Source: Candidatus Marinacidobacterales bacterium (GTDB lineage: Bacteria > Acidobacteriota > Vicinamibacteria > Marinacidobacterales > SMYC01). From it: a stretch of 64,000 bases of DNA. The notes beneath the pieces were generated by a model. The model made no database searches. It saw only the letters and a list, made by a program, of their open reading frames with translations, and was not told where the DNA came from. The stretch's first letter is position 1. The number at the start of each line of letters is the position of its first letter. Shown one piece after another: positions 2,612-36,737 of this stretch. The position numbers and the translations under genes were made by a program. The stretch covers positions 352,001-416,000 of the forward strand of contig CBDCYI010000005.1 of the NCBI GenBank assembly GCA_965224085.1, given 5' to 3'.

Positions 2612-5104
2612 ATGAAAGCGAAGCTGGTGTGGAGCACGTTTCTTACGTCGATCTCCCTGGTGGTTCTAGCCCCCCCTCGGGCCGTCGCCCAGTCAACGCC
2701 CACGGTGATCAAAGCCAAGACGATCTACACGGTGACAAACGGCACTCTCCAAAACGGTGAGATTCTCATCGAGGCGGGGAAGATCAAACAGGTGGGGTCT
2801 CACGTCGATGCGCCGGCCGACGCTCGCCAGTACAGCGCCGAGGTCGTCATTCCCGGCATGATCGATGCCCACTCCCACATGGCCTTGGATCGATGGAGGG
2901 ATCGGCCTCCCGAACCGGTCACCGCCGAGTGGAAGGCGGTGGAGCATTTCGACCCCACCGATCCGATGATTCCCATCGCTCTCTCCGGAGGGGTGACGAG
3001 CATGATCACCCGTCCGGGCAGCAGCATCGTCAGCAGCGGTCAGGCGGTGGCGGTGAAGCTGAAGGCTGATCCTTCGAAGAACATGATCCTCAAGCCCTAC
3101 GTGGACTTGAAAATGGCCATTCGTCCCTTGATCGGGCTGCGCCCGGGCGAAATCCCGGCCACCATCATGGGTTGGTATGCCAGCGCGAGCGAGTACTTCC
3201 GGCGGGCAAAAGCGTACTTGAAGAATTGGGAGGACTACCAAGCAGGCAAGCGGGATAAACCGGAAGTGAACGAGAGGCTGGAAGCTTTCGCGGCGATTCT
3301 GCGAGGCGACGTCATGGTTCACGTACACGCTCATCATCCAGGCGAGGTGATGATGGCCATGCACCTGGCTCGGGAGTACGGTTTCATCGACCAAATGGCC
3401 CTCAGCCATGTCCAGGACGTCTTCCCCATTGCAGACATCCTCGCCAAGACCAAGATCATTCCCGTCATCGGTCCCGAGTTCATCGTGCAATTCTATGGAG
3501 ATACTCGCTCTCATAATGTGGTGAAGGAGCTCATGGAGGCCGGTGTGGCGGCGAGCATTCAGACGGACACGAGCGCGGAGCAGGCCAAGTGCTTTCGCGA
3601 GTACGGTGCTTTCCACATCCGTCACGGCCTGAAGGAGCAGCATGCCCTCGAGGCGCTCACCATCAACGGGGCCAAGGCGATGATGCTCGATGAGCGCATC
3701 GGAAGCATCGAAATCGGCAAGGACGCCGACCTGGTTCTCATGAACGGTCCACCCTTCGACCTCCATGCCGAGAGGATCGAAAGGGTTTTCGTGGACGGCG
3801 TCCTGGAGTTCGAGCGCACGGAATGGAGGCAAACGGCGGCCCCCACCAAGGTGGGACCGTTCCGGCCGGTCAAGGGCCGATTGCAGCCCCACCAGAAGAC
3901 CTTCGCCCTGACCAACGCCCACATCTTTACCGTGAGTCAGGGAAACATTCCCAACGGAAGAATTCTCGTCGAGGATGGCAAGATCACCGACGTGGGCGCC
4001 GGCGGCAGCGCGCCTCGGGGCGTCCCGTCATTGGACCTCGGCGGACGGATCGTTCTGCCAGGCTTTGTCAGTCCCCGTGCCTTTCCCAACGATTGGATGG
4101 GAGATCTGAAGTGGCAGATTCAAAACGATGAGAACATCGAGCCCATCGTGCCCGAGATGGATGCGCGCTTCGCCTTCGACCCGTGGTTTCCCTCGTTCCA
4201 AGTTATCCGCCAGATCGGTATCACCGCTCAGAACGTGACGCCGGGACACCTCAACCTCATCGGCGGTCGCGGAGTCGTGATCAAGACTCGGGGAATGGAC
4301 GCCGAGATAATGGTGAGAAAGTCCCCGAGCTCGATGGTCTTTTCTCTCGATCCAAGCTCCATTCGCTACTGGGGAAGGGACTCCCAGATCCCCCTCACGG
4401 TGGAGAGGGCCGTTCTGGCGATCCGGACCACCTTGGACGGAGCGAAGGCGTATCTCGAGCAAGGTGACGCCTTTGAGTACAACCAGCGATCCGAGGCGCT
4501 TCGCCCATTGCTTCTGGGAAAAATCCCCGCCATCGTGCGGGCCAGCACCGTGGAAGAGATCCGGGCGGCGATGAAGCTGGCCGAGGACTACCGGATGCGC
4601 CTTCTCATCGCCGGAGCGGTGCAAGCCTACAAGCTAGCAGCCGAGCTGGCGAGAGCGAACGTGGGTGTCATTCTAGGGAGCTCGGGCACCTCATTCAACA
4701 TTCGCGGCGGCGGTGAGGGCTATACCGATGAGAGTCCTGCCCTTTTGAGCCGAGCCGGAGTGAAGGTGTCTTTTTTTGGAGCCAGCGGTAGCCGACGGTG
4801 GATGCCCACCGGCGCGCTGGGGGGCGAGCCCGCATTGAATGCAGCCTGGGCCTTCCGCAACGGGACGCCGGAGCGGGAGGCTCTCCGTATGGTGACCCTG
4901 AACGCCGCGGAGATGCTCGGTATGGGGGACCGCATCGGCAGCATCGACGTTGGCAAAGACGCGGACTTCATGGTGCTGGAAGGACACCCCTTCGATTATC
5001 GCGTGCTCCCCCAGATGGTCTTCATCGACGGGGAGCTCGTGTTCAGTACTCGTCCAGAAGATGGCTTCCTCGAGCGGACTAGCTCCGGAGGGCCCGAGCT
5101 GTGA
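2612..5104 (+). CDS. Exported amidohydrolase with two tandem amidohydrolase domains
   Basis: Signal peptide ending AVA-Q, PGMIDAHSH metal motif, two copies of RIGSI(E/D)xGKDAD. Confidence 0.85.
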   Translation: MKAKLVWSTFLTSISLVVLAPPRAVAQSTPTVIKAKTIYTVTNGTLQNGEILIEAGKIKQVGSHVDAPADARQYSAEVVIPGMIDAHSHMALDRWRDRPPEPVTAEWKAVEHFDPTDPMIPIALSGGVTSMITRPGSSIVSSGQAVAVKLKADPSKNMILKPYVDLKMAIRPLIGLRPGEIPATIMGWYASASEYFRRAKAYLKNWEDYQAGKRDKPEVNERLEAFAAILRGDVMVHVHAHHPGEVMMAMHLAREYGFIDQMALSHVQDVFPIADILAKTKIIPVIGPEFIVQFYGDTRSHNVVKELMEAGVAASIQTDTSAEQAKCFREYGAFHIRHGLKEQHALEALTINGAKAMMLDERIGSIEIGKDADLVLMNGPPFDLHAERIERVFVDGVLEFERTEWRQTAAPTKVGPFRPVKGRLQPHQKTFALTNAHIFTVSQGNIPNGRILVEDGKITDVGAGGSAPRGVPSLDLGGRIVLPGFVSPRAFPNDWMGDLKWQIQNDENIEPIVPEMDARFAFDPWFPSFQVIRQIGITAQNVTPGHLNLIGGRGVVIKTRGMDAEIMVRKSPSSMVFSLDPSSIRYWGRDSQIPLTVERAVLAIRTTLDGAKAYLEQGDAFEYNQRSEALRPLLLGKIPAIVRASTVEEIRAAMKLAEDYRMRLLIAGAVQAYKLAAELARANVGVILGSSGTSFNIRGGGEGYTDESPALLSRAGVKVSFFGASGSRRWMPTGALGGEPALNAAWAFRNGTPEREALRMVTLNAAEMLGMGDRIGSIDVGKDADFMVLEGHPFDYRVLPQMVFIDGELVFSTRPEDGFLERTSSGGPEL

Positions 5105-32112: not shown

Positions 32113-33486
32113 ATGTTTATTACCAAGAAGCACATTTCGAGGCGCGCGGCCCTTCGCGGCCTCGGCGCTACGATGACGCTGCCTTTTCTCGACGCGATGG
32201 TGCCCGCGCTCGCGGCCACGCGCAATAGCGCGGCCAATCCGCGCACGCGCTTCGTAGCACTCGAGATGGTGCACGGCTCTGCAGGCAGCACGGGGGATGG
32301 GACGCGCAAGCACTACTGGTCGCCCGCCACAGTGGGCCGCCATTTCGAGACGACGCCCATCTTGCGCGCGCTCGCACCGCATCAGGACCACATTACGATC
32401 GTGAGCCACACGGATATCGCGCCGGCCACTGCCCAGATCGAGGCCGAGGCCGGCGCCGACCATACACGCTCGTCCGCCGCGTGGCTGACCTGCGCCCACG
32501 CCAAGATGACCGAAGGCGCCGACATCCACAACGGCATCTCGATGGACCAGCTCTATGCGCAGCAATTCGGCCAGGACACGCCGCTGCCGTCGATCCAGGT
32601 CTGCGTCGAGGACGTCGGCTCGCTCACCGGCGCTTGCGGCTACGGCTATAGCTGCGTTTACGCGAACACGGTCTCTTGGGCGTCGCCGACGACGCCGCTC
32701 CCGATGGAGCGCGATCCGCGCGTCGTCTTCGAGCGGCTTTTCGGCGACGGCGCTACGCCGGAAGAGCGGGTCAAGCGGCGCCAGACCAAAGCCAGCATCC
32801 TCGATGGAATTCTCGACAAAGTGAACAAGCTCGAACGCGGCCTCGACGCCGCCGACCGTGCTCGGCTCGAGGACTACCTCGAAGACGTGCGCGAGATCGA
32901 GCGCCGCATCGAGAGGGCCGAGACGCACAATGCCGTCAAGTCAACGACGGCGCTAGGGGCGAGCCCCATCGGCGTGCCGGATACGTGGGCGGAGCACGTC
33001 AAGCTGATGTTCGACCTCCAAATCCTTGCATTCCGAACCGACGCGACGCGGGTCTCCGCATTCAAGATGAGCCGCGACGTGAGCTCGCGTGTTTTCGCCG
33101 GAAGCGACGTGAAGACGCCGTTTCATTCTCTCTCGCACCACATGGACAAGCCGGACAAGCTCGCTGAATTCGCGCGGCTCAATGAGTTCCATGTGAATCA
33201 CGTCGCTGATTTCATCGACAAGATGAAGAACACACCGGACGGCGACGGCAGCTTGCTCGACCATTCGATGGTGCTCTATGGAAGCCCGATGGGCGATGGC
33301 AGCGTGCACAACCATTTGCGCGTCCCGCTCTTCATCGCGGGCCATGCCAATGACACGCTCGAGGGAAATCTTCACGTTCTCTGCGAGGACGGCACTCCCA
33401 TGGCGAATGTGCTCCTAACGCTTCTTCACAAGCTCGGAGTCGAGGTCGATCGCTTCGGCGACAGCAACGGCACGGTGGCGATTTGA
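32113..33486 (+). CDS. DUF1552 (HxxSHH) domain protein, Tat-type leader
   Basis: SRRAALRGLG leader, FHSLSHH, GSLLDHS. Usual partner of DUF1592. Confidence 0.92.
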   Translation: MFITKKHISRRAALRGLGATMTLPFLDAMVPALAATRNSAANPRTRFVALEMVHGSAGSTGDGTRKHYWSPATVGRHFETTPILRALAPHQDHITIVSHTDIAPATAQIEAEAGADHTRSSAAWLTCAHAKMTEGADIHNGISMDQLYAQQFGQDTPLPSIQVCVEDVGSLTGACGYGYSCVYANTVSWASPTTPLPMERDPRVVFERLFGDGATPEERVKRRQTKASILDGILDKVNKLERGLDAADRARLEDYLEDVREIERRIERAETHNAVKSTTALGASPIGVPDTWAEHVKLMFDLQILAFRTDATRVSAFKMSRDVSSRVFAGSDVKTPFHSLSHHMDKPDKLAEFARLNEFHVNHVADFIDKMKNTPDGDGSLLDHSMVLYGSPMGDGSVHNHLRVPLFIAGHANDTLEGNLHVLCEDGTPMANVLLTLLHKLGVEVDRFGDSNGTVAI

Positions 33487-33503
33487 TCGGAAAGGGACGA
33501 AAA

Positions 33504-35069
33504 ATGCTGGGCGGGGAGCTCCTGAGCGTATCGATTCTGATGGCGATGGCGATGCTGGCATCCGCCGACGATACGGATACGTCCACGCGGCTCGCGGAGG
33601 AAGCCAAGAGCGGCCGTGTCGTGAACGTACATGCGCTCTTGCACGAATATGTCGACGTGAACGCCGCTCAGGGTGACGGGATGACCGCGCTCCACTGGGC
33701 CGCCTATAACGACGACGTCGAGATGGCGGAGCTTCTTCTCGGTGCGGATGCGAACTTCGAGGCACGCACGCGCGTGGGCGGCATTACGCCTCTCTTGCTC
33801 GCGAGTAAGAACGGAAGTGCTTCGATGCTCGAAGCGCTACTCGAAGCGGGCGCTAACGCCAACCACGCGAGCGAGACCGGCGCGTCGGCGCTGATGAGTG
33901 CCGCATTGACGGGGAACGTCGGGGCGGTCCAGGTGCTGCTCGATCACGAAGCGGACGTCAATGCCCGTGAGCGCGCCCATGGACAGACGCCGTTGATGTT
34001 TGCCGCGTGGGAGAACCGGCCGAAAATCATCCGAAGGCTCATCGCTCATGGCGCGCATCCAGAGCTCGCCTCGACGGTGCTGCCGCTCAACGAGCAGCAT
34101 TATGACGATAACGGCATGCCCCGCAAGCGCCGCGGCAGTCAGCAATCTGGCGGCAATTCTGCCATGGGCGGAATGACAGCGCTCTTGTTCGCCGCGCGCG
34201 ACGGCCACATGGAAGCCGTCGCGGCCCTTCTCGACGCCGGCGCCGACATCAACCGCGTGAGCGGCGGCGACGCGTCGAGTCCCATCGTTATCGCCATTGC
34301 GAATGGACACTACACGCTCGGGCAATATTTTCTCGACCGCGGCGCCGACCCGAACGTGGCGAATTTGGACGGGGTCGCGCCGCTCTACGCCACCGTCAAC
34401 ATGCGTTACGCCCCGGTCTCCTGGGCGCCCAATCCGCGGATCGACCAAGAGGTCGTCGATTCTCTCGAGTTGATGCAAGCGCTCCTCGAGGCGGGGGCGG
34501 ACCCGAACGCCCAGATCGCGCGCAAGCTCTGGTTCAGCCCAACCTCGCACGATCGCGGATGGATCGACCAAGCGGGCGCGACGCCGTTTTGGCGCGCGGC
34601 GATGTCGACCGACGTCGAAGCGATGAAAGTGCTCGTGGCCGCGGGCGCCGATCCGAGCTTGAAAACGGACGGAGGCGCGACGGCGCTCATGGTCGCGTCC
34701 GGCCTAGGCTGGATCGGCAATTTCAGCCAGAACCCGCCCGATTCGTGGGTGGAGGCTGTCGAATATTGTCTGAATCTCGAAAACGACATCAACGCCGTCG
34801 ACAAAGACGGCTTCACGGCCCTACACGGCGCCGCATCTCGCGGTGATAACGAGACCGTCCAGCTCCTCGTCGACCGGGGCGCACGGGTCGATATCGTCAA
34901 CGAGGACGGCAACTCGCCGGCGGATATGGCCTTCGGCCCGTCGCGCTTTTTCATCCCCAAGCCGGAGACGGTGGACCTGCTCATAGCACTCGGCGCGCCG
35001 TTTTTGGACAATTGCCGCTCGGACCAGTGCGTCGACGGGAAGTTCCTCGGGGGCGCGGTCGCCAAATAG
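33504..35069 (+). CDS. Ankyrin-repeat protein, probably exported
   Basis: Many GxTALHxAA/GADxN repeats and a hydrophobic leader. Start uncertain. Confidence 0.9.
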   Translation: MLGGELLSVSILMAMAMLASADDTDTSTRLAEEAKSGRVVNVHALLHEYVDVNAAQGDGMTALHWAAYNDDVEMAELLLGADANFEARTRVGGITPLLLASKNGSASMLEALLEAGANANHASETGASALMSAALTGNVGAVQVLLDHEADVNARERAHGQTPLMFAAWENRPKIIRRLIAHGAHPELASTVLPLNEQHYDDNGMPRKRRGSQQSGGNSAMGGMTALLFAARDGHMEAVAALLDAGADINRVSGGDASSPIVIAIANGHYTLGQYFLDRGADPNVANLDGVAPLYATVNMRYAPVSWAPNPRIDQEVVDSLELMQALLEAGADPNAQIARKLWFSPTSHDRGWIDQAGATPFWRAAMSTDVEAMKVLVAAGADPSLKTDGGATALMVASGLGWIGNFSQNPPDSWVEAVEYCLNLENDINAVDKDGFTALHGAASRGDNETVQLLVDRGARVDIVNEDGNSPADMAFGPSRFFIPKPETVDLLIALGAPFLDNCRSDQCVDGKFLGGAVAK

Positions 35070-35265
35070 TCTCGAATCCCGCCCCAAACCCTTCCGAAGG
35101 CAATCGGAACCCTTTCCTAACCGCGGTCTAGCGTTAAGCTCGAGACTCCGTCCAGCGCACGACCGAAGTCACGCGCGTCTTGGCGCGCCTCGTTTGCTCA
35201 AGGGGGCTAATTTATCTATCCTTGCGACCCACATGATGAGCACGGCCAAGAAAAGGAGTAGGTCC

Positions 35266-36171
35266 ATGAAGCATTGGAGTATCGTTTTTCTCCTGGCGTC
35301 GTTGTGCTGTCAGCCTGCTGAAGAATCGGCGCCGACCCCGGCCGTCGAATTGGTGGGCTTTGCCAACCCGGACCTTCTCATCGAGACCGATTGGCTAGCA
35401 GAGCACACGGGTGATACGAGAGTCCGAATCGTGGACGCGCGGGCGGCCGAAGCCTACGAAGCGGGCCATATCCCGGGCGCCATCCACATCGCACGCGAAG
35501 ACACCTACGATCCCGACGCCGAGATCCGCGCCACCGTTGGTCCTCCCGAGCAGATCGCGTCTCTGTTCGGCGCCAAGGGCATCGACGAGTATGCACACGT
35601 CGTCGTGTACGACAAGGGCGTCGCAACCAGAGCAGCACGGATCTTCTGGACGCTCGAATATTACGGCCACCCCAACGTCTCGGTTCTGAACGGCGGCTTC
35701 GACAAGTGGCAGGCGGAAGCGCGCGACGTCACGACTGAAGTTCGAGAAGTCGCGCCCGTAACGCTCACGGTTCAGAGGAACGCGAGCGCGCTGACGACCA
35801 GGGATCGGATCCTCGGAGATCTCGACGCGACCGACGCCGTCATCTTGGACGTCCGAACGTCGGAGGAGTTCTCCGGCGAGGATGCGCGCGCCGAGAGGGG
35901 CGGCCACATTCCGGGTGCCGTTCACCTCGAGTGGACCGAGAACTACACGTCGGGCGAAGCGCCGATTCTCAAATCCGCGCTGGAGCTATCGAACATGTAC
36001 GAGCAGGCAGGCGTTACGAAGGACAAACGCGTCCATGCTTACTGACAGGGCGGAGGCCGGTCGTCGGTGACGTACCTCGTGCTTCGACTGTTGGGCTTTG
36101 AAGAGCCTTTGAACTATGACGCGTCCTGGCTGGAGTGGGGCAACGATCCGGATACACCGATAGAGAAGTAG
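35266..36171 (+). CDS. Tandem-domain sulfurtransferase (rhodanese), predicted selenoprotein with UGA at 36043-36045
   Basis: AAGGAG RBS and two GHIPGA motifs. The catalytic loop reads HAY-UGA-QGGGRS and continues in frame to [10 protein letters not shown]...IEK-TAG, the rhodanese C-terminal signature. Confidence 0.85.
36046..36080 (+). promoter_or_regulatory. Candidate bacterial SECIS hairpin
   Basis: Directly 3' of the UGA: GAGG/CCTC lower stem, GTCG/TGAC upper stem, TCGG loop. Folded by eye only. Confidence 0.4.
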
Positions 36172-36197
36172 GTCGCGTCAACAAGCCAAACGAGTGC

Positions 36198-36737
36198 TCA
36201 TCGCCCTAGGGCCATCCCCCCGAGCCCAAAGAAAGCGGCGAGCCAGAAAGCGACGAACAAATACGCGACGAAACCCACGAGGCAAACGACAACCGCTTTC
36301 CCCGTCGATTTGTAGTCGAGCGCTTGCCGAACGGCAACAACCGTCGCCACCAGCTGCCAGATCCATACGACGAAGCGCACCAGCCAGCCCAAGAGCGGGA
36401 CGATGCCAAGAATGTTCAAAATACCCGGTGAGGCGGCGAAGCCTATGGTTCGAAGAAGCTGCCCGAAGTCAGCTTTGGTCGATGGCTCCGGCAGGAGCTT
36501 CGTCCCGACGACGAAAATAATGCCTGCCCAAACGACCCAGCCGACGCCCGCAGCAATGAGCCCACCGACGAGACCCCTAGAGCCGCCGAAACCCGCGGAG
36601 CCAATCCCGGATGCGATGACCGACAGCGCGACGACGGCCATCGCTTGCGGTAGCGCGTTCTCATCGTGCTCAACTTCTTCATAAGTCTTGACGTTCAGCG
36701 TCGCGGCGCCGATCATCCTCTCTGTAAAGCTCGCCAT
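36198..36737 (-). CDS. YIP1 family membrane protein
   Basis: RMIGAATL..TYEEVEHD N-terminus, five hydrophobic segments, AVRQALDY. Confidence 0.85.
   Translation of the reverse strand: MASFTERMIGAATLNVKTYEEVEHDENALPQAMAVVALSVIASGIGSAGFGGSRGLVGGLIAAGVGWVVWAGIIFVVGTKLLPEPSTKADFGQLLRTIGFAASPGILNILGIVPLLGWLVRFVVWIWQLVATVVAVRQALDYKSTGKAVVVCLVGFVAYLFVAFWLAAFFGLGGMALGR

Follow-up and report, generated by a model that had tools for sequence, protein, structure and literature searches.

A probable selenocysteine-containing, exported RhdA-type rhodanese gene in an uncultured marine-type acidobacterium

Introduction

Does a UGA codon end a rhodanese gene just before its active site, or is it read as selenocysteine (Sec)? 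The question is raised by a gene on the forward strand of a 64,000-nucleotide (nt) stretch of DNA, called the window below, from Candidatus Marinacidobacterales bacterium (GenBank assembly GCA_965224085.1, contig CBDCYI010000005.1, positions 352,001 to 416,000). Under translation table 11 the frame, which opens with ATG at 35266, closes with ...KDKRVHAY at the TGA at 36043-36045. A first-pass annotation, made from the letters alone, had placed this UGA at the active-site Cys of a two-domain sulfurtransferase. It had also seen 41 more codons up to a TAG, a hairpin past the UGA and a lipoprotein signal at the N-terminus. The comparative analysis reported here makes us confident, short of certainty, that the locus is an intact gene of an uncultured marine-type acidobacterium and encodes a Sec-recoded, exported rhodanese of the RhdA type.

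Results

Direct reading of the window bore out every coordinate and sequence statement made for the interrupted frame. There was a single in-frame TGA within 35266-36171 (+); reading past it added 41 further sense codons up to a TAG at 36169-36171, for a total of 301 residues. The ATG at 35266 was preferred over an upstream TTG at 35194 because the homologues begin at the same MKHW... in the protein alignment.

The translated protein has the architecture of a tandem rhodanese. The Pfam family Rhodanese (PF00581) was found as two stretches with an E-value of 1.2e-40. The AlphaFold model had a mean predicted local distance difference test score (pLDDT) of 92.1 and a predicted template modelling score (pTM) of 0.87. 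In the model, a strand at residues 255-259 is followed by U260 and then by a helix at 261-275, which is the classical active-site turn of rhodaneses. The best folds found by Foldseek were the rhodaneses 1uar (TMq 0.84) and 1e0c (TMq 0.83), with a root-mean-square deviation of 1.8. The best solved relative was Azotobacter vinelandii RhdA (PDB 1e0c, E 8.5e-47), whose loop hCQTHHRS aligned with yUQGGGRS; the Thermus thermophilus rhodanese 1uar matched with an E-value of 4.3e-45. Both share the tandem rhodanese folds with the window's protein at 36-38% identity; they differ in being Cys-type thiosulfate sulfurtransferases, crystallised as chains without a signal peptide or lipobox. The six-residue loop from U260 through QGGG to R265 starts with the catalytic residue and ends in Arg, as compared with CQTHHR of 1e0c. 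Domain 1 has Asp116 at the place equivalent to the catalytic Cys, where it aligns with the RhdA segment vvyddegggwagr, and this matches the pattern of other tandem rhodaneses. The mature protein has no other Cys; therefore Sec260 would act alone, as in the persulfide-carrying rhodaneses.

Homologues carried either Cys or a stop at the same column. A 5.8-billion-protein collection was searched, and 121 proteins were stored, the best 120 matches being listed. Gene calls ending at the catalytic column, sorted by a C-terminus rule made for this analysis, accounted for 39 of the 121. In a 35-row alignment, all 18 shortened homologues ended in H[A/G/T]Y right before the column, and all 16 full-length homologues had Cys there within the motif Y/H-C-Q-x-x-x-R. 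The pairing was also found in homologue DNA sampled, among the matches listed, from same-group genomes, GTDB species genomes and metagenome contigs. This census took in 174 loci (L016-L189) and counted the high-scoring segment pairs (HSPs) that span residue 260; the codons at the column were TGC (131), TGT (37), TGA (18) and TAT (1). The lone TAT came from an HSP at 26% identity with a gap at the column, and two census loci ended at contig ends short of it. Two pairs of entries were the same records reached by two routes (L017 and L030; L018 and L031), leaving 16 distinct TGA genes with 39-93% identity to the window's protein, and at all TGA loci the tblastn alignment ran on past the stop. The phylum was also sampled, with 401 genomes, including the window's own (G000), searched at a threshold of E <= 1e-50. 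A homologue was present in 25 genomes (26 matches), and five of these matches carried a flag for a single TGA. Three of the genomes (G439, G109 and G170) had TGA at the catalytic column, bringing the distinct Sec-type genes to 19, with protein identities of 38-94%. By record title, the hosts of the Sec-type genes were metagenome-assembled genomes (MAGs) of Acidobacteriota (including 'Candidatus Marinacidobacterales') and of Anaerolineae/Chloroflexota. The alignment, the codon column and the RhdA loop thus agree with the position first proposed for the UGA.

A FastTree tree was built from 173 rows (159 Cys and 14 Sec) whose HSPs covered residues 45-290 or more, at an identity of at least 30% and with at most one stop, excluding the duplicates L030 and L031. 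The Sec label needed seven changes on this quick tree, on which several long branches were flagged; starred branches make at least five of the seven unavoidable. The window's protein fell in a pure-Sec clade of six with a support of 99, together with Anaerolineae and metagenome sequences.

Some loci of the wider family had other arrangements. Tandem paralogues occurred in Chloroflexota MAGs: L036 had two adjacent Sec-type copies (3001-3801 and 4220-5090), and L032 had a Cys-type copy (about 142-1314) upstream of a Sec-type copy (3001-3879). A distant homologue at G197:C37:11891-12712 (L214) had TGC at the catalytic column, its internal TGA lying elsewhere, and a distant rhodanese homologue at G004:C13:46538-47371 (L029) was flagged with an internal TAG.

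A conserved hairpin resembling a Sec insertion sequence (SECIS) was present past the UGA, as had been noticed at first pass. It starts 13 nt past the UGA. Its stem is of 7 bp in this genome and of 8 bp in relatives, with an unpaired U bulging on the 3' side, and its apical loop is GGU (36066-36068), 21-23 nt past the UGA. When columns were counted with the U of UGA as 1, this 20-nt element (type 1, columns 16-35) was found in 14 of the 19 distinct Sec forms, and a C at column 16 accounts for the 7 bp here. Three other Sec forms (L117, L124 and L125) had a type-2 hairpin, which has 6 bp and a GGC loop and occupies columns 15-29, and the remaining two (G109/L213 and G170/L215) had a G+C-rich type-3 hairpin with GG in the loop. 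The three types differ in sequence and in encoded peptide, and each has a small GG-containing loop at an equal distance from the UGA. Such a small apical loop containing G is named as a common feature of bacterial SECIS elements in the part of the Sargasso Sea study that deals with them (PMC1088965). Alternative hairpins at one position suggest that SECIS elements turn over or that Sec was gained more than once independently. The predicted lower stem varied by lineage (GGAGG/CUUC here, CCAG/CUGG in L032 and L110).

The coding sequence around the hairpin was constrained in the Sec forms. The folding energy of nt 13-40 had a median of -8.5 kcal/mol in 16 Sec forms versus -4.0 kcal/mol in 164 Cys forms, and values of -8 kcal/mol or lower were reached by 14 and 21 of them, respectively (one-sided Mann-Whitney p 9e-8, the rows being related rather than independent). 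Codon choice in type-1 Sec forms was compared with that in Cys forms having the residue in question. Arg was written as AGG in 12 of 13 Sec forms versus 3 of 113 Cys forms, the second Ser as TCG in 13/13 versus 23/58, Val as GTG in 13/13 versus 21/39, Thr as ACG in 10/10 versus 13/49, and Tyr as TAC in 13/13 versus 44/82. All four bases were used in the Sec forms at the third position of a Leu codon that lies just outside the stem. The choice of stem codons is therefore frozen in Sec forms and free in Cys forms. Within the genus, 0-1 synonymous changes fell in codons 2-16 and 3-6 in codons 17-42. In the core hairpin 98.1% of the cells were paired, versus 26-64% when the partners were slid. One compensatory pair was seen, a change from G-C to A-U in L118, silent in a Ser codon on one side and turning Thr into Met on the other.

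The genome has the machinery for Sec insertion. Matches above the cut-off were obtained for selA (457 bits), selB (365 bits, cut-off 242) and selD (280 bits), and aragorn found one tRNA-Sec with the anticodon tca, so that all four of selA, selB, selC and selD, which the first-pass annotation had proposed looking for, are present. Three more genes had one in-frame TGA each: a formate dehydrogenase alpha gene (fdhA, 1339 bits; G000:C5:2096968-2099964, minus strand, L194), a second molybdopterin enzyme gene (G000:C4:1100993-1101556, plus strand, L195) and a DsbA/DsbG-like gene (G000:C11:1545926-1546399, minus strand, L190). Because of the last of these, Sec proteins appear to be sent to the envelope in this organism. 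The DsbA/DsbG-like (seleno)lipoprotein family NF041057, to which that gene is related, resembles the rhodanese in being exported and in having UGA at a redox-active Cys; it differs in its thioredoxin fold, its UxxC chemistry and its unrelated sequence. The selD match (G000:C5:1545162-1546073, minus strand, L010) lies inside a 774-residue open frame; SelD is usually less than half as long, which suggests a fusion protein.

With this evidence, three explanations that leave out Sec can be weighed. If the TGA were a nonsense mutation in a pseudogene, at most a 259-residue product without the active site would be made. Table 11 does close the frame at VHAY, public pipelines call the shortened protein, and one relative has a frameshift nearby. 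Against this, the same TGA stands in the 19 distinct genes, from at least two phyla, and the hairpin is conserved in a genome that has the Sec machinery. The sequence past the UGA has not decayed either. In two same-genus genomes the TGA is retained and the read-through matches over all 301 residues, at 94% and 91% identity; in pairwise comparisons of four same-genus genomes the ratios of synonymous to nonsynonymous differences over the 41 downstream codons were 6:1, 4:1, 5:1, 6:0, 6:0 and 3:0, and indels started right past the TAG. The downstream codons are thus under purifying selection. Comparative data already make a pseudogene very unlikely, and we would give it only a few chances in a hundred.

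An error for TGC or TGT in sequencing or assembly would need only a one-base difference, and MAG assemblies do carry errors, such as a 1-nt deletion in the same-genus genome G003. However, Logan contigs of three runs from three studies (X1, X4 and X7) covered the site, and none of the differences listed falls at 36043-36045; X4 record 20 and X7 record 32 had zero other letters. A further 52 lesser differences lie beyond those listed in this comparison, X1 may be the source sample itself, and another run, X10, covered the gene only in part and carries no weight here. The TGA also stands in the two same-genus genomes and in many metagenome contigs, and we consider this explanation extremely improbable. 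Just as improbable is a genome-wide reassignment of TGA to a standard amino acid (e.g., genetic code 4 or 25) without any Sec. The frame would be open under such codes, but of the window's 44 long frames 20 close with TGA, the two flanking genes among them, and TGA is therefore an ordinary stop elsewhere in the window; moreover, the homologues have Cys at the column, not Trp or Gly, and the Sec machinery is complete. The UGA, in our reading of these comparisons, almost certainly encodes Sec at the catalytic site.

The N-terminus resembled that of an exported lipoprotein, with one irregularity. A short charged start is followed by a hydrophobic stretch and a conserved Cys, the Cys15 column being 90% conserved. 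Residues 1-28 had low pLDDT in the model, as expected of a signal peptide and a tether. Relatives had the canonical lipoboxes LSLSC, LLGC, FGAC, LGGC and LAGC. Congeners have S-L-S-C, and this genome has S-L-C-C, which is atypical in its Cys at -1. The lipobox consensus is [LVI][ASTVI][GAS]C. A strict rule made from it for this analysis qualified at least 28 of the 39 shortened (Sec-type) and at least 36 of the 82 other stored proteins, these counts being lower bounds as the rule misses LSLSC and SFAC in close relatives. The Cys forms, Bacillaceae isolates among them, carry the same signal; an exported location is thus a trait of the family. The signal reported at first pass is there as described, and its Cys is conserved; the protein is most likely lipid-anchored. 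In this genome's own copy, whose S-L-C-C has Cys at -1, lipidation and processing are presumed. The envelope had been called an unusual location for such a protein, which did not hold up: Cys homologues share the lipobox, and both rhodanese-like lipoproteins (ExtH) and exported selenoproteins are known.

Table 1. Features of the rhodanese locus, in positions of the window
Feature	Position	Strand	Evidence
Selenoprotein gene	35266..36171	+	Translation with TGA as U: 301 codons including Sec260, stop TAG
Shine-Dalgarno-like AAGGAG	35253..35258	+	Direct reading; 7 nt before ATG
Signal peptide and lipobox region, Cys15 as conserved lipobox cysteine	35266..35310	+	Alignment
Non-catalytic N-terminal rhodanese domain, residues 41-151	35386..35718	+	Best Pfam stretch, RhdA alignment, model fold
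Catalytic C-terminal rhodanese domain, about residues 179-295	35800..36150	+	AlphaFold model, fold comparison
UGA read as selenocysteine, residue 260, catalytic loop U-Q-G-G-G-R-S	36043..36045	+	RhdA alignment, codon column, independent contigs
Sense codons after UGA (n=41)	36046..36168	+	Synonymous and nonsynonymous differences among four same-genus genomes; indels start past TAG
Core SECIS-like hairpin	36058..36077 (start 36058/9)	+	Recurrence in Sec forms, pairing, codon freezing
Extended lower stem of hairpin	36044..36092	+	Minimum free energy (MFE) fold, predicted; takes in G and A of UGA

Discussion

A Sec rhodanese of this architecture had been predicted computationally before, as the first-pass annotation correctly stated for rhodanese-like proteins in general. 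In the Sargasso Sea study (Zhang, Fomenko & Gladyshev 2005, PMC1088965), the passages on new families list a 'Rhodanese-related sulfurtransferase' (COG2897) with three sequences among 15 new selenoprotein families and draw the SECIS element for one. The corresponding part of the Global Ocean Sampling (GOS) study (2008, PMC2398784) gives selenoprotein forms of cd01449 (eight sequences) and COG2897 (one sequence), and a 2022 review, in its section on these proteins, lists related COG0607 forms. The motif published for the family is UxxG, the 'form 4' of a review. The window's gene shares with the COG2897/cd01449 family, as described in those passages, the two-domain architecture of SseA and thiosulfate sulfurtransferase (TST), Sec at the catalytic Cys, widespread Cys homologues, the U-x-x-G motif (UQGG here and UQTG in relatives) and a hairpin whose small apical loop contains G. 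A lipoprotein signal, hosts in Acidobacteriota and Chloroflexota, and three hairpin types go unmentioned in the same passages. With PF00581 twice and UQGG, the window's protein fits form 4, and it probably belongs to the same clade as the published examples AACY01016424 and MCY3690685.1. Full-text searching of the literature, supplements excepted, brought up no paper on a Sec rhodanese that is a lipoprotein. The gene thus joins a selenoprotein family predicted since 2005, and the finding is sound and unsurprising.

The following sequence of events is proposed. During translation, the hairpin beginning 13 nt past UGA-260 would bind the complex of SelB, GTP and Sec-tRNA(Sec), and Sec would be inserted in place of termination. 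Selenium would in this way enter the protein, and the 41-codon C-terminal part would then be made, completing the catalytic domain. The mature enzyme would lie in the envelope, tethered to the membrane by its N-terminal Cys and a linker of roughly 15 residues. Sec260 would be its sole redox-active residue, held in a cradle-shaped loop of the CQxxxR type. A sulfane sulfur (or selenium) atom would pass from a donor, e.g., thiosulfate or polysulfide, onto Sec260 to give an enzyme Se-S(-) intermediate, and would then be handed to a thiophilic acceptor. Compared with Cys, Sec would be expected to be more nucleophilic and a better leaving group. Taken alone, a sulfur-transfer role in the envelope seems somewhat more likely than not.

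Several results weigh against a Sec-recoded, exported sulfurtransferase or leave parts of it with less support. The substrate and the acceptor are suggested by homology. A search for signs of expression listed no RNA data set. A search of the protein against NCBIfam gave no model above its cut-off: the best match, the model for the 3-mercaptopyruvate sulfurtransferase (3-MST) SseA (NF008557), scored 143 bits against a cut-off of 250, and the second-best, the ExtH model (NF040901), scored 64.6 bits against 200. The lipobox S-L-C-C fails the consensus and is not called by the strict rule. No operon partner is conserved outside the genus; the neighboring genes are conserved only within it, and they therefore give no functional link. 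In G003, the third same-genus genome (L019, G003:C1, about 2259 in locus coordinates), one A of an AA pair is missing 24 nt before the TGA, orthologous to window 36019-36021. The deletion shifts the frame, yet nothing is lost of the TGA, the hairpin or the codons that follow; the cause is an error of (long-read) assembly or else decay that began very recently. P0011, one of the stored proteins, has its end in that shifted frame too.

The hairpin has weaknesses of its own. The whole region of 66-68 nt past the UGA folded no better than shuffles (z -0.84 and +0.31); its MFE is unexceptional, and global folding therefore proves nothing. Folding energy alone is not diagnostic, since the 21 Cys forms at or below -8 kcal/mol reach it as well. 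Covariation was weak, with one two-sided pair, and 75 of 500 shuffles did as well; this test is uninformative because the core hairpin is nearly invariant. Compared with Rfam at E-values of up to 10, the stretch 35900-36250 matched no family apart from a chance hit to Xist_exon4.

The main competing view of function accepts a real Sec lipoprotein and assigns it to the handling of selenium in the envelope rather than to sulfur transfer. Its task would be to bind selenite, to reduce it or to deliver selenium in an enzyme-bound Se-Se or Se-S species, as proposed for ExtH. In the passages of a review concerning it, ExtH of Geobacter sulfurreducens is a rhodanese-like outer-membrane lipoprotein linked to selenite uptake (PMC8981825); the window's protein, likewise of rhodanese type and probably an envelope lipoprotein, also has a link to selenium. 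The second-best place of the ExtH model, built on a rhodanese-like protein of selenite/tellurite reduction operons, favors this view, and so does the organism's investment in selenium use. However, the score is far under the cut-off and the match covers only the N-terminal domain region 48-175, while the closest structures are thiosulfate sulfurtransferases. The ext gene cluster is absent: the rhodanese gene has no ext-like porin or cytochrome gene next to it. Its neighbors encode a DUF1552 protein, an ankyrin-repeat protein of 528 residues, a membrane protein with a Yip1 domain (from a convergent gene) and a Ser/Thr kinase. We regard selenium handling as an unlikely, though serious, competitor of sulfur transfer by an exported Sec rhodanese.

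A broader proposal goes well beyond the locus, and we think it will probably turn out to be wrong in this form. Marine-type Acidobacteriota and some Chloroflexota might run a selenium-based relay of sulfane sulfur outside the cytoplasm. Thiosulfate or polysulfide would supply sulfur (or selenium) to a membrane-tethered Sec rhodanese, which would pass it to other exported Sec/Cys redox lipoproteins, for instance the Sec DsbA-like protein; Sec would have been gained several times, each with a different SECIS solution. The three hairpin types and the switches between Sec and Cys on the tree (at least five) may be a basis for such repeated gain.

These results do not overturn current understanding and are of modest interest, which lies in several directions. 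The active site of the family is systematically missing from databases, where records are cut at the UGA and no NCBIfam model reaches its cut-off. For example, the NCBI records NIO00128.1, MFQ6058365.1 and HIC89472.1 are Sec-type members filed as a 'sulfurtransferase' of 268-279 residues ending at the UGA. In the passages cited above, Sec rhodaneses of this type are listed as predicted only, none being characterised there. Paired Sec and Cys forms of a persulfide carrier with a single active residue make a clean system for measuring what selenium contributes to sulfur transfer. The exported and probably lipid-anchored location enlarges the small set of envelope selenoproteins, and the three alternative hairpins at one position are natural variants for studies of SelB-SECIS recognition.

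Genomic context

Scans of 35000-36300 gave no promoter-like site and a single terminator-like site, on the minus strand and at chance level. Upstream of the rhodanese gene, at 32113-35069 (+) of the window, the DUF1552 (HXXSHH) gene overlaps the start of the ankyrin-repeat gene by 4 nt. The ankyrin-repeat protein has a hydrophobic N-terminus, and the DUF1552/ankyrin pair is kept upstream of the rhodanese gene within the genus.

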